DNA from: an uncultured Methanomassiliicoccus sp.
Lineage (GTDB): Archaea; Thermoplasmatota; Thermoplasmata; Methanomassiliicoccales; Methanomassiliicoccaceae
DNA: 64,000 bases
Direction: 5' to 3'
Assembly: GCA_905203995.1 (NCBI GenBank)
Contig: CAJKXZ010000004.1
Span: 28,340 to 92,339, forward strand
The notes under the pieces were generated by a model that did no database searches, was not told the origin of the DNA, and was given only the letters and a program-made list of their open reading frames with translations. The translations under genes were made by a program, and so were the position numbers. Below, piece by piece: positions 3 to 51,581 of the stretch (positions within the stretch are counted from its first letter, which is position 1; the number at the start of each line of letters is the position of its first letter).

Positions 3-884
3 CTAGTCTGCAGCCGCTGCGGTCATGTCTGGAAGAATCAGTCGGAAAATCCTCAAAGATGTCCTAACTGCCAGTCGACACTGTGGAATGTTCCGCGGCC
101 AACGCTGCAATGCCGGCGCTGCGGGCATAAGTGGACGCTAAAGGGCCGCCGCCGGATGGAAGATGTTAAAATCTGTCCCAAATGTAAATCGGCAAAATGG
201 AATGAAGCGCCGAAAGTCTTTGTCTGCAGCATCTGCGGGAAAACACAGCTCCTCAAAGCCAATCAAAAACTGATGGCCTGTCCGCACTGCAATTCACACC
301 AGCATGTCTATGAGTTGAATTGTCCTTTCTGCGGCTACGTCTGGAATGTTGAACTAATGAATAGCTCGCAGTGTCCTCTCTGCAAAACAGTAGTCACTGA
401 TGAAGTGAGTGCCGGTTCACAGACTTTGGATATCTGGACGGAAGGCAACAGAGTTCTGCGTTACACTTCTAGCAATGGTTTTGGTTTTATTTATCTCTGG
501 GAAGGATTGGATCCGGTCACAACCATTTATTTCCATGAAGCCTGTCGGCAGCTGGCAATCAATGCCGAAAAGTTCATTGAAGCGATTAACACCAATACCT
601 TGAATGAAACGTTTAAGAAGCTTGCTAACTCGCTTTATGAACATCGTGATGATTACAAGCAATACATTCCTTATTTCCAAAAACGGCTTAACTTAAGCGA
701 GTTGGATGCAAGAATCCTCGCCATCCATTTTATCGGGATGGGGCCGGAAGCCATCGCCCTCAAATTCAAAATTCCTTACGAACAGATTCGTGATTCTTTT
801 GAACGCATCATGGCGGCTTTTACTGATTCAGGCATCGCCGTCGACGATACGGTTTTTACTGAAAATCCATTTGATTATTATTAA
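3..884 (+). CDS. 5'-partial multi-Zn-ribbon repeat protein with C-terminal HTH (putative transcription regulator); reading frame is open from the window start, so the gene begins upstream
   Basis: Frame 3 is open from nt 3. Translation shows tandem ~30-aa repeats of pattern C-x2-C-G-H-x-W-x(8-13)-C-P-x-C-x-S-x2-W-N (CSRCGHVW...CPNCQSTLWN; CRRCGHKW...CPKCKSAKWN; CSICG...CPHCNSH; CPFCGYVWN...CPLC). The C-terminal ~70 aa (LSELDARILAIHFIGMGPEAIALKFKIPYEQIRDSFERI) resembles a sigma-70 region-4/LuxR-type HTH. Confidence 0.55.
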   Translation, partial: LVCSRCGHVWKNQSENPQRCPNCQSTLWNVPRPTLQCRRCGHKWTLKGRRRMEDVKICPKCKSAKWNEAPKVFVCSICGKTQLLKANQKLMACPHCNSHQHVYELNCPFCGYVWNVELMNSSQCPLCKTVVTDEVSAGSQTLDIWTEGNRVLRYTSSNGFGFIYLWEGLDPVTTIYFHEACRQLAINAEKFIEAINTNTLNETFKKLANSLYEHRDDYKQYIPYFQKRLNLSELDARILAIHFIGMGPEAIALKFKIPYEQIRDSFERIMAAFTDSGIAVDDTVFTENPFDYY

Positions 885-1174
885 TTGTAAGCTAGTGTTT
901 TTACTTATTTTACAGTGTAACTTAATACGCCATATTTTTTAATTGATTGTCCATTGGCTTTTGTGAGTATTTTTGATACTCATTCCTCTTTTACTATGAA
1001 ATTCCCTAAATGTGTTGTTCTTACTTACTCACATCACCATCTTTTTCCAAATAAGATACATATATACCTACTGTATTACTAACTTGGACTATTCGTCCAA
1101 TAAACCCTTGGAAAGCTGAGATAACTCACTTTCTGGCTGAGGAAGTATAAGTAAAATAAATCTGGTGGGAAGAG

Positions 1175-1894
1175 ATGAGCACAACTATCTATCCAAGTCT
1201 TCGTCATGAAACTGATGAGGCTTCAAGCAAACCATGTAGTGTGGAGCCGGATAATCACATCGTTTTAAGCTGTAAAATCTGCGCTCATCACTGGCAGCCG
1301 CGGAATGGTGAGAAGCAATTACCGCAGCGCTGTCCCCAGTGTCGCAGTACCCGCTGGAACCTCGACAACCCCATAAAAAACAAATGTTTACGCTGCGGCC
1401 ATGATTGGGTAAGCAACGACAAATCACCCACCAAATGTCCTAATTGTCACTCTTCTAAATGGAACAGCAAAGCAGTACGTTGTAAATGCCGCAAGTGTGG
1501 ACACAGCTGGGAAAAGAAAAAGCGCGGTACACCGAAGAAATGTCCTGCTTGCAAATCATACTACTGGAATGTTTCTGGTGGTAGTTACGGCAGCAAAACC
1601 ACTTCTCTGGTTTGCAGCAGTGATGCTAAAAAATGGATGATGACTCCTTACCGTCAGGATCTTTTCAACATTATCAATTCTGAAGAAGGAAAAGATGCAA
1701 AGGTGGCGATGATCGCCCGGCTTCTGCAAATCGAAGCTAAAGATGCGGAAGTCTATCTGCTATATCTGCAGGGTACTGATTTAGTCGCGGTCTCCATTGC
1801 CTGTGGTCTTCCCTTTGAGATTACGATGAATGTAATTCAGGAAGTAGAATGCACTTTGTTCAATCCTATGTCGCGGATGGCAGCACGGGCATGA
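1175..1894 (+). CDS. Paralogous multi-Zn-ribbon repeat protein with C-terminal HTH
   Basis: Three tandem copies of the same C-x2-C-(G)H-x-W...C-P-x-C-x-S-x2-W-N module (CKICAHHW..CPQCRSTRWN; CLRCGHDW..CPNCHSSKWN; CRKCGHSW..CPACKSYYWN). C-terminus EVYLLYLQGTDLVAVSIACGLPFEITMNVIQEV is HTH-like. Stop TGA at 1892-1894 overlaps the ATG of the next gene (ATGA). Confidence 0.55.
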   Translation: MSTTIYPSLRHETDEASSKPCSVEPDNHIVLSCKICAHHWQPRNGEKQLPQRCPQCRSTRWNLDNPIKNKCLRCGHDWVSNDKSPTKCPNCHSSKWNSKAVRCKCRKCGHSWEKKKRGTPKKCPACKSYYWNVSGGSYGSKTTSLVCSSDAKKWMMTPYRQDLFNIINSEEGKDAKVAMIARLLQIEAKDAEVYLLYLQGTDLVAVSIACGLPFEITMNVIQEVECTLFNPMSRMAARA

Positions 1895-2481
1895 AAATTC
1901 TTGACATTAAGAAATATGGTCCCGTGTATCGTTTTACCGATGCCAATCTCTATTGGACACTCTATTATCTTTCTAAAAACAAAACAATCGGCCGGCGCAG
2001 TCTAGCATTGCATGTAGGCATCGGCGAAGGCAGCATGCGCAATATTCTCAACATCCTCAAGGAATGGCATTTTGTTGAGACTTTCAACCGCGGCATTCGC
2101 ATTTCTCAAGATGGTGCATTATTCCTCAGCACGATCCCCTTGGAAGTGGTTGATCTCAAGCTTTCCGGTTATCCTGAACTGCAGAATCAAGCACAATGCA
2201 GTGTAGTAGTTTTACAAGCATCATCCAAGATTCAAGATGGTCTCCGGCAGCGGGATGTATGTATCCGTTCGGGTGCCAATGGGGGCATCACCATTGTCAT
2301 GAAAAACGATTGTCTGTTAATTCCTCCAGATCATCTCCTTGCACAAGACAATCCTGAATTCGTGGAAACAATCTCTTCTTCCTCGAAGATGAATGATGGT
2401 GATGTTTTAATCATCAGTTTTGCTGAGGAACTACACTCAGCCGCCAATGGGGCAATTATGGCCGCTTTAGATTTGATCTGA
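1891..2481 (+). CDS. Uncharacterised protein with N-terminal winged-HTH-like region (conserved GxGEGSMR motif); paralogue of 50997..51581
   Basis: The ORF track gives 1849..2481. The internal Met at 1891 (MKILDIKKYGPVYRF) aligns with the start of the paralogue (MKLIERPKYGPLHRF) and gives an ATGA overlap with the upstream stop. Both copies share YGP..RFTD, VG.GEGSMR, TIPL, and a C-terminal ..AA.GA..AALDL. motif. Confidence 0.55.
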   Translation: MKILDIKKYGPVYRFTDANLYWTLYYLSKNKTIGRRSLALHVGIGEGSMRNILNILKEWHFVETFNRGIRISQDGALFLSTIPLEVVDLKLSGYPELQNQAQCSVVVLQASSKIQDGLRQRDVCIRSGANGGITIVMKNDCLLIPPDHLLAQDNPEFVETISSSSKMNDGDVLIISFAEELHSAANGAIMAALDLI

Positions 2482-2533: not shown

Positions 2534-4687
2534 ATGAAGCGTATCGCCATTTATGGGAAAGGCGGAATCGGTAAATCCACAATCTCGTCCAATCTAACGG
2601 CCGCTTTATCAGATCTGGGGGTCAAAGTGCTGCAGATCGGTTGCGATCCTAAACATGACTCTACCCGTCTGCTGACTAACGGTGCTCAGGAAGTTACGGT
2701 CTTAGATTATCTGCGGGATACCTATCCGGATGAACGAAAATTGGAGGATGTCGTTTGTCACGGTTACAAAGGTTGTTTGTGTGTAGAAGCAGGCGGACCC
2801 GAACCGGGCATTGGCTGTGCCGGACGGGGAATCATTTCCGCCTTTGAATTGTTGCAGGATCTGGAAATCAACACAATTCCTCTGGACCTTACTATCTATG
2901 ATGTCTTAGGCGACGTGGTCTGCGGCGGTTTTGCCGTTCCTTTGCGTGATGGCTATGCCGATACAGTTTACATCGTCACCTCTGGCGAATTCATGTCAAT
3001 TTATGCAGCCAACAACATTCTCAAAGGTACTGCTAACTACAACCCCGACCGGATCGGCGGCATTATTTTCAACAGCCGCGGGGAAGAGGAAGAATATGAA
3101 CGGGTGAAGCGATTCGCCGAGGCGGTTGCGATACCGATCGTGGCTTCTTTCAGCCGTTCACGAGAATTCCTAGATGCTGAAAAATGCGGCAAAACAGTTG
3201 TGGAAGCTTATCCAGATTCTCCGTTGGTGGCTTCGTTTAAATCGTTAGCTGAAATAGTTCTGATGGGTAAGAAATACACGGCTAAGTCCCTGACTGAAGC
3301 TGAATTAGAACAGATCGTTTTAGGCCGGACTACCACTCATAGAGCAATCACCACCGAAAAGCCGCTCCCGCAGCTAAACGTTGACAGCTCACCACGCTAC
3401 TATACTTCCCGGAATGTGCAGAAGAATGAAGTGCTGCATGGCTGCGCTTTTGCCGGAGCCGCTTCAACCACCCTGGCCGTCAGCGGTCTGACGACGCTTA
3501 TGCACGCTCCGCGGAACTGCACCCAATTTGCTTATCAGCTGGCTACCAATGCCGTTAAACGATCATACATTTGTGAAGGTACAGCTATTCATGGCTTTGC
3601 CCGGCCGGAAGCTATCTGCACTAATATGACAGAAGCTTCGATGATCTTCGGCGGCAATGAGGATCTGCGTAATTCTTTGAACACCGCGCTGCGGCATGGT
3701 CAAAAGAATATCGCCGTCATCACTTCCTGCCCTTCGGGGATAATCGGTGATGATGTGGAAAATATTATTAAAGACCTGTCTGTCCAGCATCCAGAGGCAA
3801 CAATTGTACCGCTAATCGAAGACGGCAATGTAAATGGTGATTTTATGCAGGGGGTCATCGATGCCTGCATTGGACTTACCAAGGCTTTTGTAAATCGTTC
3901 TGCTGAAAAAACAGCTACCGTCAATCTCATCGGCATGAAAACCATTGCTACCAATTGCCTTAAGAATTCAGCAACTGTCGAAAATATCCTTGCCCAACTG
4001 GATATTAAAGTTAACTGCCGCTATCTGGGCAATACGGATATCGCTGATCTAAAAAATCTGACGGCGGCTAATTTCAATCTTTTACTGAATCCCGATCGTT
4101 TTTCCATGATGCTTAAACAATTTCTGGAAGACAATTACGACCTGGTCTTTTCTAAGAATATTGCCCGACCTGGTTTGAAAGCAACCATTCGTTGGATCAG
4201 AGAAATCGGCGAAACATTCTCTAAAACGGCAGAAGCAGAAAGGATCATCAAGGCTTTACAGGATGAATATCTTCTTCATTCTGAATTTTTAAGAAAAGAA
4301 TTGGAAAATAAAACAGTCTATGTTGCCAGTATGAATCGCGATATCGACTGGATCTTAGAAATGCTGGCTGCGGCAAAGATGAAAGTTCAGAAAGCGATTG
4401 TTATTGACCGGCCTGATTACACTATGGATTATGATGTACAGGCTGAATATCCCTTTGTGCAGGTGATTGAGAAATATGATCTGCAGGATCTTATTGATGA
4501 TATCAATCAGCAGGAACCAGATATGCTCATCGCTGCTTATCCGATGGCCGTGAAAGAATCAATCTTCCAACGGTACATTCCCTTAGTGCCGGATGTCGGC
4601 CCCTTTGGGGCGTTAGAATTGGCCGACTCCTGGCTTAGTTTTCTGAAAGCACCCACAGTAGAAGGATGGCGAAAAGATGGTAACTAA
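2534..4687 (+). CDS. Fused nitrogenase-like protein: N-terminal NifH/BchL/CfbC-family Fe-protein ATPase (~aa 1-270) plus C-terminal NifD/NifE/BchN-like component-1 domain (~aa 300-717)
   Basis: N-terminal P-loop [10 protein letters not shown]. Both [4Fe-4S]-ligand cysteines of NifH are conserved ([18 protein letters not shown] and [13 protein letters not shown]). After a ~30-aa linker the D-like module keeps three cluster-ligand-type Cys in NifD-like context ([24 protein letters not shown]; compare NifD CPVGLIGDD). It is a single uninterrupted 717-codon frame. Confidence 0.8.
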
Positions 4688-5918
4688 TTATGACAAACCA
4701 GAGGGTTTGATGGGCGTTCTCCTGGCCTTTGAAGGCATGAATGATGCAGAAACTATTCTGAACGGTCCGACCGGCTGCAAATTCCATCCCGCTTCCGTTG
4801 CGGAAGCTGCTAGTCAGCGGAAAGGCTCCTTCAATCCCTTAGTTTTCTCAGGCGAATTTCATTTCTGTCAGCCGCGCATTCCTTGTACATATCTGGGCGG
4901 CTATGATTACATTGTCGGCTCCGGTGACCGTTTACAACGGCTTTTTGCTGAATTAGAAAAAATAAAACCCAGTCTTATCGGCATTGTTAACTCACCGGGG
5001 GCTTCACTGATCGGTGAATCTTTAAACGTTACTGAAAACACGATCCCGGTGATTAAAGTTGAAACGCCCGGCTATTCGCAATCAATGGGTGAAGGCTTTC
5101 AGGAAGGGATCATTTCTATCTTGGAAAAAATTCCCCCGCAAACTGGTAAAAAACAAGCAGCGGTAAATTTAATCGGCCTTTCCATCTGGCATCTAAACTG
5201 GGAAGACAGTCTTGACGATCTTAAATATCTGCTGCGGCTGTGTGATATTGAAGTAATCGCCACGGTCGGTGCCGGTTGGTCGCTGGCTGACCTCAAAGCA
5301 TCAGGCGAAGCCGAGTTAAATGTCGTGCTGCATCGTGAATTCGGCAGCAGAATTGCGGAATGGTATGCAGAGCACTGCGCTACGCCCTTCATCGCACCGG
5401 AGATTCCCTTAGGCTTTGATAGTCTGGAAAGGTGGATCAAAGCGATCTGCAGCAGATTAGCTAAAGATCCTACGCCGGCTTTAGAACTTATCAAATCAAA
5501 AAGAAAGAGGGTCTTCCGTGAACTGCAGTCGATGGAAGAAAGAAAAATTCTGCCTAAAGGCCGCACTTTCTCTCTGGCTGCTGACGAATCATTAGCTCTG
5601 CCGATTATAAAGTTTCTTTATGAATATCTGGGCATGGTTCCGGTCGCCGTTACTATTGAAAATCCGACTGGTGAAACCGAAAAATATCTGCAGACCCAGC
5701 AGCTTACTGTTTCCAACAATGTCTGGCAGACAACTGCTGATCTCTTCCTTGGTGATGGCAACACGATCTCCACCTTGCTCTTTCAGGAACTGGTAAGAAG
5801 CGGCATTGCCGTTGTGTCTCCCGGTCTCCGGCAGGTAGCAATTCAAGCTGAACCAGTCTTAGGCTTAGGCGGTACCCTGCGCTTGCTGGATGGAGTATTA
5901 AACGCTCTGGTGAGATAA
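4677..5918 (+). CDS. Nitrogenase component-1 family (NifK/NifN/BchB-like) partner subunit
   Basis: Oxidored_nitro-type sequence features ([27 protein letters not shown]). Only one Cys sits in the canonical cluster-ligand positions. The start ATG overlaps the stop of the upstream fused gene (ATGGTAACTAA), implying translational coupling. Confidence 0.75.
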
Positions 5919-50996: not shown

Positions 50997-51581
50997 ATGA
51001 AACTAATAGAACGTCCTAAATATGGACCGTTGCACCGTTTCACAGACTATCACGTGTACAAGACACTTTCCGTGCTTTCTGACGGTACTCGCAAAGGTAG
51101 GAAGCAATTAGCTGATAAGGTAGGCGTAGGCGAAGGCAGCATGCGTACTATCGTCGAATGTATTCGCGATAAGGGTTATATCGACGTCAAACAGACGGGG
51201 ATTAAAATTACCAAAAAAGGCAGTGAATTTTTCAATACCATTCCTCTGCAGATTTATACACTTGGTGAATCTGATCTGGTCCACGGCAAAAGCGGCGTCG
51301 CCGTACAGGTCAAAGGAGTCGCCAGTAAAATCGGTTCAGGGATGGAACAGCGTGACCGGGCGATGATCGCCGGTGCTGATGGTGCCACTACCGTTCTGGT
51401 TAAAAAAGGAAAATTACAGATCCCCGGTGATATTGATCTGGAAAGCATCTATCCTGACACCGCTTCGACACTCAATAAGCTGTTTGATCTGGAAGATGAA
51501 GATATTGTTATTATCGGAACTTCTGCCCAACTGGAATGTGCAGAAGAAGGCGCCGTTGCGGCAGCTTTAGATCTCTTATAA
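50997..51581 (+). CDS. Second copy of the wHTH-like uncharacterised protein (paralogue of 1891..2481)
   Basis: Shares KYGP.HRFTD, VGVGEGSMRTI, NTIPLQI and C-terminal EEGAVAAALDLL with the first copy. Confidence 0.55.
   Translation: MKLIERPKYGPLHRFTDYHVYKTLSVLSDGTRKGRKQLADKVGVGEGSMRTIVECIRDKGYIDVKQTGIKITKKGSEFFNTIPLQIYTLGESDLVHGKSGVAVQVKGVASKIGSGMEQRDRAMIAGADGATTVLVKKGKLQIPGDIDLESIYPDTASTLNKLFDLEDEDIVIIGTSAQLECAEEGAVAAALDLL

Follow-up and report, generated by a model that had tools for sequence, protein, structure and literature searches.

The DNA analysed here, a stretch of 64,000 nucleotides (the window) from Ca. Methanomassiliicoccus intestinalis, a human-gut methanogen, carries two overlapping genes, nflHD and nflK. 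We read them as a two-gene nitrogenase-like (NFL) reductase from a large uncharacterised clade, ATP-driven and with a substrate that is, on balance, probably a corrinoid or a related cobalt tetrapyrrole. As judged from its sequence, the system is not a nitrogenase and not CfbCD; gene context and B12 riboswitches suggest that it acts on a corrinoid and that neither N2 nor coenzyme F430 is its target. Recent work on the nitrogenase-like superfamily has brought to light new chemistry (F430 synthesis, and the cleavage of methylthio-alkanes and of isethionate), and a 2026 review names uncharacterised clades as the main challenge of the field. The fused clade is large, with members in human-gut methanogens and many anaerobic bacteria.

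The fusion itself has been seen before. Dos Santos et al. 2012 (PMC3464626) noted fused 'NifH-NifE-like + NifN-like' systems, Borrel et al. 2014 (PMC4153887) labelled the very same Ca. M. intestinalis gene 'fused nifH/nifE', and a 2024 archaeal fusion survey (PMC11237513) listed the fusion as cluster 443. Each gives it one sentence ('data not shown'), with the fused proteins dropped from the phylogeny and no function proposed; the clade was set aside for more than 10 years because the fusion complicated phylogenies. NflHD-NflK is of this same class and does not differ from it, having a single H+D/E ORF followed by a NifK/N-like gene and lacking FeMo-co ligands. A sequence-only reading of this DNA had taken the architecture to be structurally new, which these earlier mentions contradict. 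New beyond them are the corrinoid context, the riboswitch link, the invariance of the ligands and the H-H-D forms.

The nflHD and nflK genes and their cluster ligands

The two ORFs reported by the sequence-only reading, 2534..4687 and 4677..5918, were found at exactly those positions. The features of the locus are as follows.

156..1894, + strand: two zinc-ribbon-rich proteins (weak Pfam zinc-ribbon matches), between the upstream Btu-like ABC transporter and the regulator and nflHD
1849..2481, + strand: putative regulator of the DUF4443/CggR_N type (Pfam), 52 nt upstream of nflHD
2534..4687, + strand: fused nflHD gene (717 aa), NifH-like Fe-protein module, tether and NifD/E-like module (ORF list and Pfam)
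2534..3319, + strand: H module, residues 1-262, with P-loop at 8-15, switch I at 37-44, switch II at 123-133 and [4Fe-4S] ligands Cys95 and Cys130
3320..3409, + strand: H-D tether, residues ~263-292 (roughly 30-40 residues), predicted disordered
3410..4684, + strand: D module, residues 293-717, NifD/E-like, with Cys304, Cys329 and Cys399 at NifD P-cluster positions
4677..5918, + strand: nflK gene (413 aa), NifK/NifN/BchB-like, with Cys34 at nt 4776-4778 (ORF list and Pfam)

NflHD matched Pfam Fer4_NifH over residues 3-262 (E 1e-84) and Oxidored_nitro over residues 304-701 (E 7e-57). The H module contains the P-loop GKGGIGKS (8-15), switch I CDPKHDST, switch II and the cluster ligands Cys95 and Cys130, both of which are invariant (69/69 family members), and its AF2 model aligned with nitrogenase Fe proteins in Foldseek at TM 0.85-0.91 and 41-47% identity. 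With Walker A, switch I/II, two cluster cysteines and the Fe-protein fold, this is a nitrogenase-like Fe protein of the NifH/BchL/CfbC superfamily, and as complete a NifH module as had been claimed. Residues 265-286 of the tether have pLDDT <50 in the AF2 model, and the spacing from the end of H to the first D cysteine has a median of 43 aa (range 38-128; 69 proteins). A 100% identical protein is on record as 'nitrogenase component 1 [Ca. Methanomassiliicoccus intestinalis]'. Source annotations call the fusion 'nitrogenase component 1' or 'nitrogenase iron protein'.

In an alignment to NifD and MarD chains, D-module residues Cys304 (GCAFAG; nt 3443-3445), Cys329 (APRNC; nt 3518-3520) and Cys399 (nt 3728-3730) fell on NifD Cys62, Cys88 and Cys154, and all three are kept in 69/69 proteins. 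There is no cysteine at the aligned NifD Cys275 position, where the D module reads LLNPDR versus LLCH-RS in NifD, nor at that position in the family consensus of D modules. Cys495 of the D module is nearly invariant (67/69).

The nflK start and the nflHD stop overlap by 11 nt (ATGGTAACTAA), and an overlap of this kind is conserved across loci. NflK matched Oxidored_nitro over residues 11-411 (E 3e-43), and its closest solved relatives were BchB/ChlB (2e-17), with MarK at 1.5e-13 and NifK at 1.7e-11. Cys34, the equivalent of betaCys95 and so one of the three P-cluster cysteines of K, is the sole NflK cysteine at a ligand position; it is invariant (70/70), the other NflK cysteines being variable, and aligns with BchB residue 36. 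Wild-type BchB reportedly has an aspartate (Asp36) there, and the best PDB match of NflK in a single-sequence search carries Cys at this residue. The sequence-only reading had described a hetero D/K pair with three cysteines in D and one in K, after the NB-cluster logic of DPOR/COR; the pattern proved invariant across the family and predicts one DPOR/COR-type inter-subunit [4Fe-4S] cluster.

We then compared the proteins with NCBIfam profiles, including the DPOR families TIGR01281/01279/01278 and the COR families TIGR02016 and TIGR02014. The best match of the H module was CfbC (NF033200), at 318 bits versus a cutoff of 402; NifH (302 versus 394), BchL (191 versus 345) and BchX (169 versus 331) were also below their cutoffs. 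The D module matched N2ase-I alpha best (90 bits versus 486), with nifD at 81 versus 654 and a NifE score almost equal to the NifD score. Against CfbD (TIGR03282, cutoff 268) the D module scored 35 bits and NflK 21 bits. The nifK score was 26-29 versus 427, BchZ gave 44 versus 529, and NflK scored 34 against BchN (cutoff 420), with BchB at 51-54 versus 490; the fusion had no TIGR01279 match among the 25 families listed, and scored 30 against PRK02842 BchN (cutoff 324). NflHD-NflK is below all NifH/D/K/E/N cutoffs, and among ORFs of >=150 aa in the whole 64-kb window neither cfbA/B/E nor nifB/E/N was present, in agreement with their earlier reported absence from the neighbourhood.

Known classes were rejected on this basis. 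A nitrogenase has six P-cluster cysteines (3 alpha + 3 beta), of which D has three and K only Cys34; of the FeMo-co ligands alphaCys275 and alphaHis442, the D module lacks the first, the one that the alignment resolved; the equivalog cutoffs were missed and no nifB/E/N lies within the 64-kb window. For CfbCD, the sequence cutoffs were missed, D and K are two distinct genes versus the homomeric CfbD, whose gene is usually clustered with cfbE/cfbB, and the window has no cfb genes. The fourth ligand is the invariant Cys34, not the Asp of DPOR, and membership of TIGR01281/01279/01278 was missed, as was that of TIGR02016/TIGR02014 for COR. The Mar/Nfa-type group IV NFLs (P-cluster and L-cluster-like cofactor) have six P-cluster cysteines and a Cys at NifD-275/MarD-270, neither the full set nor that Cys being present here, and MarD and MarK are distant matches (8.5e-13 and 1.6e-5). 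Cutoffs and ligands alike uphold the earlier claim of neither a nitrogenase nor a canonical CfbCD.

Distribution and gene context of the HD-K family

The DNA and reading frame across the H-D linker are identical in four independent assemblies, and the exact NflHD protein is present in 92 blocks of the assembly collection. Fused homologues number >120. Full-length ones (706-771 aa) reach down to 46% identity, the fusion is kept down to about 23% identity across domains of life, and at least 49 of the top 150 representatives at 50% identity are fused. We found 69 complete fused HD ORFs among 83 genome-derived loci (79 from a GTDB scan and 4 fetched earlier), and HD was fused in 51/51 metagenomic loci having enough upstream DNA. 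Nearly all of about 130 loci, which come from three methanogen orders and many anaerobic bacteria, have fused H-D plus K; the bacteria include the non-methanogens Treponema, Clostridia, Coriobacteriia and Thermoguttaceae. Rare H-H-D triple fusions occur (L047 and P0178), planctomycete relatives having such a chain, and a split form was found once. Both the linker check and the search of other genomes therefore favored a genuine fusion, as the sequence-only reading had held: the identical ORF in many independent assemblies and the wide conservation rule out a frameshift or misassembly, to the extent that sequence analysis can. That reading's surprise at DPOR/COR-type logic in an archaeon is dispelled by the spread of the family across methanogens and bacteria.

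The locus is not isolated, a point on which the emphasis had to be corrected: just before the first position of the window, a Btu-like ABC transporter is encoded in the same orientation as nflHD (L001). The order there, all on the + strand, is Peripla_BP_2, PQQ-like, FecCD, ABC_tran, two Zn-ribbon genes, DUF4443, HD and K. The order of the DUF4443 regulator and HD-K is the same in L001-L004, an association seen only in Methanomassiliicoccus spp., and from its position the regulator may belong to the system. A relative (L007) adds CobD, CbiB and CbiZ.

Neighbour genes across the loci were grouped by unbiased clustering and annotated with Pfam/NCBIfam. With crude ORF calling, and with some GTDB bins probably contaminated, the recurrent HD-K neighbours were ABC_tran (27 loci), FecCD with BtuC as best match (22), CbiZ (15), Peripla_BP_2 (12+9), ChlI/ChlD-like proteins (11), CobN passing the TIGR02257 cutoff (9) and CbiK-like proteins (9). 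Single-strand operons occur, an example being CbiZ-ChlI-ChlD-BtuF-BtuC-BtuD-HD-K-CbiK-CobN of Methanolobus (L032). The context is nevertheless heterogeneous: corrinoid/tetrapyrrole context was present in 14/15 Methanomicrobiales loci, and such genes lie within 10 kb in only 10/33 Methanomassiliicoccales loci and 7/25 bacterial genome loci. HD-K and the CobA adenosyltransferase gene are divergently oriented in L078 and L075; downstream in L078 come MeaB and a B12-dependent mutase. The transporter parts best match BtuC, BtuF and a corrinoid ABC ATPase, with IsdE weaker; they score below the NCBIfam BtuC/F/D cutoffs, and the same family also imports haem and siderophores. In Dehalobacter, the same Btu/CbiZ/CobN/Mg-chelatase module was induced 46-fold by corrinoid starvation (PMC4285132), and the characterised simple-cluster NFLs (DPOR, COR and CfbCD) all act on a tetrapyrrole (PMC13474568).

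Cobalamin riboswitches were detected in 10/68 bacterial loci, with 14 hits in 735 kb, to be read against a background density that is a general-knowledge estimate, not a computed one. They lead operons containing HD-K in L044, L053 and L166; several control the gene beside HD-K, not HD-K, and a riboswitch-controlled TonB receptor is among the neighbours. Cobalamin riboswitches can also mark B12-independent isozymes. Elsewhere, a weak NEAT-domain match adjoins HD-K in L116, L072 encodes RACo ahead of HD-K and in the same direction, and in one Methanomethylophilaceae subclade HD-K is instead followed by TBP, cysteine-synthase-like (PALP), Hexapep acetyltransferase-like and CysRS genes.

A proposed mechanism and competing explanations

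Beside the observed architecture, ligand conservation, distribution, gene context and riboswitch association, we propose a cluster type, stoichiometry, substrate and reaction. The H module would be an ATP-hydrolysing Fe protein with its own [4Fe-4S] ligands, joined to D by a flexible linker. Between them, D and K would bind one [4Fe-4S] cluster through three Cys of D and one of K, in the manner of the DPOR/COR NB-cluster with Cys replacing the DPOR Asp, and there would be no P-cluster, FeMo-co or L-cluster. Since the donor cluster takes a pair of H modules to form, the enzyme probably works as (HD-K)2, in which one H2 dimer is tethered. The existence of H-H-D triple fusions suggests that H modules work in pairs while tied to the D of their own chain, and the H-H-D chain of the planctomycete relatives may be an alternative solution to H pairing. 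Ferredoxin would reduce the H2 cluster, ATP would gate the onward transfer to the D/K cluster, and from there electrons would reach the substrate at the D/K interface.

The substrate, a presumptive corrinoid or related cobalt tetrapyrrole, would be imported by the adjacent Btu-like ABC importer. The reaction could be a metal-centred, low-potential Co(II) to Co(I) reduction, readying salvaged corrinoids for CobA adenosylation and CbiZ processing. Alternatively, the ring or a ligand could be reduced in the course of salvage or remodelling. We know of no precedent for metal-centred reduction among NFL enzymes, and known organisms carry out Co(II) reduction for CobA without such an enzyme. It is a serious, if tentative, possibility that NflHD-NflK is the first nitrogenase-like enzyme to act on corrinoids, supplying a missing step in anaerobic B12 salvage or remodelling with a permanently tethered Fe-protein module.

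Other readings of these data must be weighed. Reduction of a non-corrinoid tetrapyrrole (haem or sirohydrochlorin-type), or a B12-independent isozyme merely repressed by cobalamin riboswitches, appears unlikely. FecCD/Peripla_BP_2 transporters also carry haem (IsdE being a weaker match), one locus (L116) has the weak NEAT-domain match next to HD-K, CbiK acts on sirohydrochlorin, and B12-independent alternatives are often riboswitch-controlled; however, the best transporter matches are BtuC, BtuF and a corrinoid ABC ATPase, the neighbours CbiZ, CobA, CbiB/CobD, MeaB-mutase and the riboswitch-controlled TonB receptor are corrinoid-specific or corrinoid-linked, and HD-K sits inside uptake operons, not beside a B12-dependent counterpart. 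For ABC-linked NifHEN-like systems, Dos Santos et al. 2012 (PMC3464626) suggested that imported metal goes into metallocofactor assembly or insertion, which here would mean a NifH/NifEN-like maturase working with CobN/ChlID and CbiK chelatases. We rate this as improbable. NifH has known maturase roles, the NifE score of the D module nearly equals its NifD score, and ABC importers and two chelatase classes recurrently adjoin HD-K, but the alignment has no L-cluster/FeMo-co ligand, bacterial loci usually keep HD-K without chelatases, and the invariant 3+1 Cys pattern is less suited to a transient scaffold site than to an electron-transfer cluster. There is a slim chance of a C-S (or C-X) bond-cleaving reductase for organosulfur assimilation, like Mar (IV-C) or Isr (IV-F), which might feed corrinoid methyltransferases. 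The characterised group IV NFLs, Mar and Isr, belong to sulfur metabolism, and sulfur-metabolism genes are associated with group IV sequences (PMC13474568), Mar-like genes lie near corrinoid-methyltransferase/RACE clusters (PMC10418091), RACo is upstream of HD-K in L072, and the D module counts MarD among its nearest solved relatives. Yet the D module lacks a Cys at NifD Cys275/MarD Cys270 and NflK has 1/3 P-cluster cysteines, the sulfur context (TBP, PALP, Hexapep and CysRS after HD-K) is limited to the one Methanomethylophilaceae lineage, the riboswitches detected are of the cobalamin type, with no SAM or other sulfur-related ones, and CbiZ, CobN, CbiK and CobA have no role in sulfur assimilation.

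The sequence-only reading had named a tetrapyrrole, an F430 variant or another compound as possible substrates; a tetrapyrrole is indeed the best candidate. Against an F430 variant, which we consider unlikely, stand the frequent occurrence of the family in non-methanogenic bacteria and the fact that a canonical NflD(CfbD)/MurF-like(CfbE)/nifH-like cluster is reported elsewhere in the same genome (PMC4153887, Table 5). We consider it very improbable that the pair is an alternative or additional F430 enzyme, either a fused CfbC-CfbD-type Ni-sirohydrochlorin a,c-diamide reductive cyclase or the maker of an F430 variant. The host is a methanogen, F430_CfbC is the best NCBIfam match of the H module (318 bits) and CfbCD is likewise a simple-cluster NFL on a tetrapyrrole (PMC13474568), but both modules miss the Cfb cutoffs (CfbC 318 versus 402; CfbD 35 versus 268), CfbD is homomeric whereas D and K are distinct, the 64-kb window has no cfb genes, and Treponema, Clostridia, Coriobacteriia and Thermoguttaceae are not methanogens. 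That we are dealing with a functional N2-fixing nitrogenase, as the annotations 'nitrogenase component 1' and 'nitrogenase iron protein' imply, or with an artefact joining nifH and nifD, has next to no probability, given scores below every Nif cutoff, a K with 1/3 P-cluster cysteines, a D without a Cys275 equivalent, no nifB/E/N in the window, and an ORF identical in many assemblies with a fusion kept to about 23% identity across domains.

Taken together, gene context and riboswitches provide a concrete, testable substrate hypothesis in corrinoid salvage, and corrinoid exchange shapes gut and sediment communities. If the corrinoid-reductase reading is true, the enzyme would give methanogens and bacteria of gut and sediment an ATP-driven step in B12 salvage or remodelling, and would be a natural experiment indicating that an NFL donor need not leave its catalytic partner between electron transfers; the H-D tether and the H-H-D forms speak to the question of whether NFL catalysis requires the Fe protein to dissociate. 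Should the corrinoid link prove wrong, what is left is a well-defined and widespread enzyme whose fixed stoichiometry is unusual.

Comparison with known systems

DPOR (BchL/ChlL + BchNB/ChlNB, group V) resembles NflHD-NflK in its ATP-dependent Fe-protein donor, its hetero D/K-like pair and its single [4Fe-4S] cluster between subunits, to which the N/D-like subunit contributes three Cys and the B/K-like subunit a fourth ligand at the same position (BchB 36 = NflK Cys34). BchB/ChlB are the closest solved relatives of NflK, and the DPOR substrate is a tetrapyrrole. It differs in having Asp where NflK supplies Cys as the fourth ligand, and in a donor that is not fused to the catalytic subunit; every NCBIfam DPOR score of HD-K falls far short of its cutoff, BchB (about 525 aa) carries a C-terminal extension of roughly 100 residues that is missing from NflK (413 aa), and HD-K hosts are non-phototrophic anaerobes without chlorophyll genes. 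COR (BchXYZ, group V) shares all-Cys 3+1 ligation, which mutagenesis has no more than implicated for BchYZ (PMC13474568); it differs in its scores (BchZ 44 versus 529, BchX 169 versus 331), and HD-K is fused and found in an unlike genomic context.

CfbCD (group IV-B) is a simple [4Fe-4S] NFL acting on a metallo-tetrapyrrole in methanogens, and the H module scores best against CfbC. CfbC is reported to remain persistently bound to CfbD (PMC13474568), which offers functional precedent for a non-dissociating donor. In contrast, CfbD is a homodimer with symmetric ligation versus a hetero D/K pair, the scores are below cutoffs, and the HD-K family occurs also in non-methanogen bacteria. The group VI NFLs of Elusimicrobia (Meheust et al. 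2020, bioRxiv 10.1101/765248) are likewise uncharacterised, with no FeMo-co ligands, <=4 Cys at P-cluster positions, no NifB requirement and a tetrapyrrole-flavoured context (radical SAM proteins with B12-binding or HemN_C domains). Their NflH, NflD and sometimes NflK are separate, lie amid radical SAM genes and have variable Cys positions, whereas HD-K, compared with them by description only (PMC13474568; bioRxiv 10.1101/765248), is fused, has an invariant 3+1 Cys pattern and lies in Btu/CbiZ/chelatase context. Finally, the RACo/RamA activators use ATP hydrolysis to drive a very low-potential Co(II) to Co(I) corrinoid reduction, as might NflHD-NflK; they have an unrelated fold (ASKHA ATPase + ferredoxin domain) and act on protein-bound corrinoids, so that the likeness would be one of functional analogy only.

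The fused gene, its partner and their spread

Two overlapping genes make up the nitrogenase-like (NFL) locus, and both frames were found exactly where the sequence-only reading had placed them.

Genes and Pfam domains of the locus
2534..4687, plus strand: nflHD, 717 aa, NifH-like H module, tether and NifD/E-like D module
nflHD residues 3-262: Fer4_NifH (E 1e-84)
nflHD residues 304-701: Oxidored_nitro (E 7e-57)
4677..5918, plus strand: nflK, 413 aa, NifK/N/BchB-like partner
nflK residues 11-411: Oxidored_nitro (E 3e-43)

The start of nflK overlaps the stop of nflHD by 11 nt (ATGGTAACTAA). A stretch rich in TTAAATA/TATATA, 10-32 nt ahead of the nflHD start, is a possible archaeal TATA box; nflHD would then have a transcript of its own with almost no leader. 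Of two paralogous putative regulators of the DUF4443/CggR_N type, one is at 1849-2481, 52 nt 5′ of nflHD, and the other at 50997-51581. Elsewhere the window encodes ordinary housekeeping functions (trehalose-6-phosphate synthase/phosphatase, deoxyhypusine synthase, PPK2, H+-pyrophosphatase, AcnX, aconitase, AlaRS and RNA polymerase subunit D), together with a URO-D-family methyltransferase, probably of the MtaA/MtbA type. For the origin-recognition box ORB4, placed 'downstream of fused nifH/nifE' by Borrel et al. 2014 (PMC4153887), a search of the window allowing up to 3 mismatches gave no match; the box may lie outside, or the strain may differ.

A database protein with 100% identity carries the name 'nitrogenase component 1 [Candidatus Methanomassiliicoccus intestinalis]', and NflHD appears in 92 blocks of the assembly collection. 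The nflHD-nflK locus is syntenic across independent human-gut assemblies, and full-length fused homologues, of which there are more than 120 (706-771 aa), extend to identities as low as 46%. The linker between the H and D modules, where a frameshift or misassembly was to be checked for, has the same DNA sequence in four independent assemblies. With identical proteins, four identical linkers and a fusion kept across domains of life, the sequence data, within their limits, exclude an artefactual origin of the fusion.

Queried on its own in an exhaustive HMMER search, the D module matched 700 representatives (50% identity level, E up to 1e-3). At least 49 of the best 150 combine an N-terminal NifH P-loop with a length of at least 600 aa, and within these 150 the fused representatives reach ∼23% identity in the D module; named members include Desulfococcaceae bacteria. 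A GTDB scan of one genome per species, queried with an alignment of the K-like partner, yielded 116 K relatives in 79 loci. The archaeal loci belong to Methanomassiliicoccales, Methanosarcinales and Methanomicrobiales and the bacterial ones to Treponema/Spirochaetaceae, many Clostridia, Coriobacteriia, Tissierellales and Thermoguttaceae; some 'bacterial' bins with archaeal-type loci are probably contaminated. Loci 33-41% identical to the query occur in bins L022, L024, L027, L040 and L042, titled Faecalibacterium sp. CAG:74, Acutalibacteraceae, Eggerthellaceae and Bacteroides salyersiae. Because the neighbours in L022, L024 and L027 (a PQQ-FecCD fusion and others) match those on Methanomethylophilaceae contigs, these three are probably mis-binned archaeal contigs.

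Directly 5′ of K, essentially all GTDB loci with enough sequence carry an H-D fusion ORF, 700-816 aa long and overlapping K. Seeding a metagenome scan with K-like proteins of bacteria added 287 relatives, with a complete fused HD ORF in 51/51 loci having enough upstream DNA. The search for the same fusion in other genomes, as had been proposed, thus found it near-universally in family loci of archaea and bacteria. The only clear split form found, in a Firmicutes MAG (Firmicutes bacterium UBA5227, L075:7750-11263), retains the order H (328 aa), D (410 aa), K (430 aa) and is a possible natural control for the role of the tether; a CobA-type adenosyltransferase gene lies divergently upstream of it. 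At the other extreme are H-H-D triple fusions, with two tandem NifH modules ahead of D, in a Thermoguttaceae MAG (L047:6599-9919, 1106 aa) and in protein P0178 (1081 aa). At a further locus of that MAG, L045, the ORF seems interrupted.

Some genomes have more than one HD-K-type system, as indicated by a paralogue only 25% identical within Methanomassiliicoccaceae (P0161) and by a termite-gut Methanomassiliicoccaceae locus (L017:33-4843) in which an HD 3′ end and K are followed at once by a second complete fused HD. In Methanosarcina sp. Mfa9 (L059:4503-7342; alike in L051, L065 and L067), three paralogous genes of ∼270-297 aa, one confirmed as DUF1638, directly precede HD-K, the H-D linker has ∼125 residues and sensor kinases lie downstream.

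Fused proteins were filtered out of the phylogeny of Dos Santos et al. (PMC3464626), nflHD of Ca. M. intestinalis was labelled 'fused nifH/nifE' by Borrel et al. 2014 (PMC4153887), and a 2026 Chemical Reviews article on NFL systems mentions neither fusions nor Methanomassiliicoccales (PMC13474568). The H-D fusion has been known, and ignored, since 2012 and is common in both prokaryotic domains. The finding of a fused NFL protein is real and interesting, and the original claim of a structurally new architecture must be reduced. Apparently new are the strict 3+1 Cys signature, the H-H-D variants and the coherent evidence tying the clade to corrinoid uptake and salvage; in literature outside subscription-only papers, we found no functional study of the clade and no published NFL-corrinoid connection.

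Affinities of the modules and the predicted metal cluster

All scores of H, D and K fall short of the curated NCBIfam cutoffs. For the H module these were, in bits versus cutoff, CfbC 318 vs 402, NifH 302 vs 394 and BchL 191 vs 345; for the D module, nitrogenase-I alpha 90 vs 486, NifD 81 vs 654, NifE 73 vs 505 and CfbD 35 vs 268; and for K, BchB 54 vs 490, BchZ 44 vs 529 and NifK 26 vs 427. The solved structures closest to the D module are NifD (2e-15) and the 'Nitrogenase' chains 9d9u/9fmg (8.5e-13), which we take to be MarD, and canonical NifD is absent from the best 150 of the D-module representative search. The K profile matched BchB/ChlB best (2e-17), followed by the partner chain 9d9u_C (1.5e-13), NifK (1.7e-11) and NifN (6e-8). 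These affinities are comparisons of HMM and PDB scores and do not amount to assignment to a named NFL subgroup (IV-D/E/F, VI).

In line with the sequence-only reading, none of nifB/E/N or cfbA/B/E occurs among the ORFs of at least 150 aa in the 64-kb window. Since the scores lie below the cutoffs and the window is without these nif and cfb genes, NflHD-NflK is, judged from sequence, a second NFL system of Ca. M. intestinalis outside every characterised family. A separate cluster of NflD (AGN27015), a MurF-like protein (AGN27016) and a nifH-like gene is listed for all three Methanomassiliicoccales genomes (PMC4153887). This reported canonical cluster and the NCBIfam scores rule out NflHD-NflK as the methanogen's sole CfbCD, the coenzyme F430 reductive cyclase (PMC4153887). 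A role in F430 synthesis is unlikely in general, given both the spread of the family in bacteria and the separate CfbCD. The NflD, MurF-like and nifH-like proteins are the later CfbD, CfbE and CfbC.

Read from sequence, the H module carries the Walker A loop GKGGIGKS (residues 8-15), switch I CDPKHDST, a switch II motif and both [4Fe-4S] cysteines, Cys95 and Cys130. HMMER alignment to solved NifD chains pairs D-module Cys304 (GCAFAG), Cys329 (APRNC) and Cys399 with NifD Cys62, Cys88 and Cys154, and at the site of the FeMo-co ligand Cys275 'LLCH-RS' in NifD stands against 'LLNPDR' in the D module. In a single-sequence search, K Cys34 aligned with residue 36, a Cys, of the best solved match, a BchB chain. 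The fourth NB-cluster ligand of wild-type DPOR is reportedly Asp36, as attributed to Muraki et al. 2010.

H Cys95 and Cys130, D Cys304, Cys329 and Cys399, and K Cys34 are strictly invariant in the archaeal and bacterial sequences compared (69 fused proteins, 70 K-like partners), which lends good support to the earlier '3 Cys + 1 Cys' interpretation. The alignments predict one [4Fe-4S] cluster at the D/K interface with four Cys ligands. Cys495 of the D module (window 4016-4018; motif 'NCR(Y/F)') is kept in 67/69 and has no counterpart among nitrogenase or DPOR ligands in the alignments examined; it is a candidate catalytic or proton-relay residue. The remaining cysteines of HD and K vary across the family.

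Corrinoid genes and riboswitches around HD-K

ORF calls from every genome locus were grouped by all-against-all BLAST with no labels assigned beforehand, and recurrent clusters were then annotated.

Neighbours of HD-K common to distant taxa (loci; counts from crude ORF calling)
ABC_tran: 27
FecCD permease: 22; best NCBIfam match BtuC, below cutoff
CbiZ: 15
Peripla_BP_2: 12 + 9
ChlI/ChlD-like AAA+/VWA proteins: 11
CobN: 9; above TIGR02257 cutoff, 918 vs 822 bits
CbiK-like chelatase: 9

At least one such gene was present in 14/15 Methanomicrobiales, 4/8 Methanosarcinales, 10/33 Methanomassiliicoccales and 7/25 bacterial loci; most bacterial loci and two thirds of those from Methanomassiliicoccales are without a corrinoid gene within 10 kb. 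The gene orders are operonic. In Methanolobus (L032), CbiZ-ChlI-ChlD-BtuF-BtuC-BtuD-HD-K-CbiK-CobN lie on one strand, with variants in L043, L050, L056, L069, L074 and L077, and spirochaete loci have BtuF-BtuC-(BtuD)-HD-K. One Methanomethylophilaceae lineage has TBP, cysteine-synthase-like (PALP), Hexapep acetyltransferase-like and CysRS genes downstream of HD-K.

In Ca. M. intestinalis, an ABC transporter lies just past the left edge of the window on the strand of HD-K, in the order Peripla_BP_2, PQQ-like beta-propeller, FecCD, ABC ATPase (best match 'corrinoid ABC transporter ATPase'), two zinc-ribbon proteins, DUF4443 regulator, HD and K, all on one strand. The transporter of a 49%-identical relative (L007) runs on into an Aminotran_1_2 aminotransferase, presumably of the CobD type, CbiB and CbiZ, and L005, a further relative, has ChlI, ChlD and CobN after K. 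The two CxxC zinc-ribbon-repeat proteins between transporter and regulator (window 156-884 and 1175-1894) have weak HypA/rubredoxin-like matches and occur in this upstream position in Methanomassiliicoccus species only. In Methanomassiliicoccales, the beta-propeller gene (L001:3195-5129) sits between the substrate-binding protein and permease of the Btu-like (BtuF/BtuC/BtuD-type) importer, and in L007:4377-7196 it is fused to the FecCD permease (939-971 aa). The propeller may serve to capture the transported ligand at the cell surface; BtuG of Bacteroides is a beta-propeller B12-binding protein. In Dehalobacter restrictus, a Btu-like transporter, CbiZ, CobN and Mg-chelatase are induced ∼46-fold by corrinoid starvation, in an operon without NFL genes (PMC4285132), giving experimental backing to this module as a salvage unit.

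Rfam at the gathering threshold detected the cobalamin riboswitch RF00174 in 4/25 bacterial genome loci (L044, L053, L058 with four copies, L078) and 6/43 dereplicated metagenomic loci (L090, L094, L105 with two copies, L116, L157, L166). Against a usual density of a few cobalamin riboswitches per megabase of bacterial genome, the 14 found in 735 kb would be a several-fold enrichment near HD-K. Two of six Rfam batches of loci contained no riboswitch, and the association therefore holds for a minority of loci. The riboswitch is a same-strand leader of the HD-K operon in L044 (riboswitch-BtuF-FecCD-ABC-HD-K), L053 (riboswitch-Diphthami_syn_2-HD-K-Peptidase_S51) and L166. By position it controls a divergent neighbour in L078, L090, L105 and L116. 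In L078, where K is followed by MeaB and a B12-dependent mutase, this neighbour is a CobA/BtuR ATP:corrinoid adenosyltransferase (above the NF004637 cutoff); in L090 it is a cysteine-rich 'zf-like' protein, and a DUF4430 protein is encoded close by. In L157 it lies downstream of K, ahead of a TonB-dependent receptor and a DUF5074 protein. Control is ambiguous in L058 and L094, where an opposite-strand YitT-family gene separates the riboswitch from HD-K on the same strand.

Proposed function, assembly and precedents

We lean, by a little over even chances, toward NflHD-NflK being a corrinoid/tetrapyrrole-salvage reductase. It would be an ATP-driven low-potential reductase acting on a corrinoid or near cobalt tetrapyrrole brought by the adjacent importer. 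Roughly half of that confidence goes to a metal-centred reduction of Co(II) to Co(I), a thermodynamically very demanding step that RACo/RamA carry out on protein-bound corrinoids at the cost of ATP. Co(I) is required for CobA-type adenosylation, and adenosylated cobinamide is the substrate of CbiZ; Co(II) reduction would thus explain the adjacency of CobA, CbiZ and the importer. The reaction might instead reduce the macrocycle or a ligand, as every characterised simple-cluster NFL enzyme does with its tetrapyrrole, and would then sit naturally by chelatases, as in chlorophyll and F430 biosynthesis. Both versions fit the data.

A sulfur role like that of Mar or Isr has to be weighed because Mar-like NFLs, which serve sulfur salvage, adjoin corrinoid-methyltransferase/RACE clusters (PMC10418091). 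For that reason, the RACo gene upstream of HD-K in L072 was downgraded from support for corrinoid redox chemistry to ambiguous. Against such a role, the D module is without the cofactor Cys, two P-cluster Cys are missing from K, and the riboswitches found are cobalamin-specific. It is also possible that HD-K acts on haem or another tetrapyrrole, that it is a NifEN-like maturase, or that it is a riboswitch-repressed B12-independent isozyme.

The tether bears on stoichiometry. In an AlphaFold2 model of NflHD built on a 46-sequence alignment (mean pLDDT 83, pTM 0.63), both modules are confidently predicted and residues 265-286 between them are disordered; the two cluster loops of H likewise score low, as expected for a monomer modelled without its cluster. 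With Foldseek, the H module fits nitrogenase Fe proteins (TM 0.85-0.91, 41-47% identity). No match among the top 50 for the whole fused model spans both modules; these are Fe-protein chains only and bear on the affinities of H, not of D. In 69 fused proteins, a median of 43 residues (range 38-128) separates the end of H from the first cysteine of D. The Fe-protein cluster forms between two H subunits, so a single H-D chain provides half a donor per D/K unit. We infer an (HD-K)2 assembly, in which one tethered H2 dimer would serve the halves alternately, or a higher oligomer. The H-H-D proteins, which restore the ratio of 2 H : 1 D : 1 K inside a single chain, favour a tethered donor that serves its own D/K partner.

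The arrangement predicted for the D/K cluster is like that of the inter-subunit cluster of DPOR and COR, the D/K version being all-Cys. For a donor that does not leave, as proposed for fused HD, CfbCD offers a precedent, CfbC being reported to form a persistent complex with CfbD (PMC13474568).
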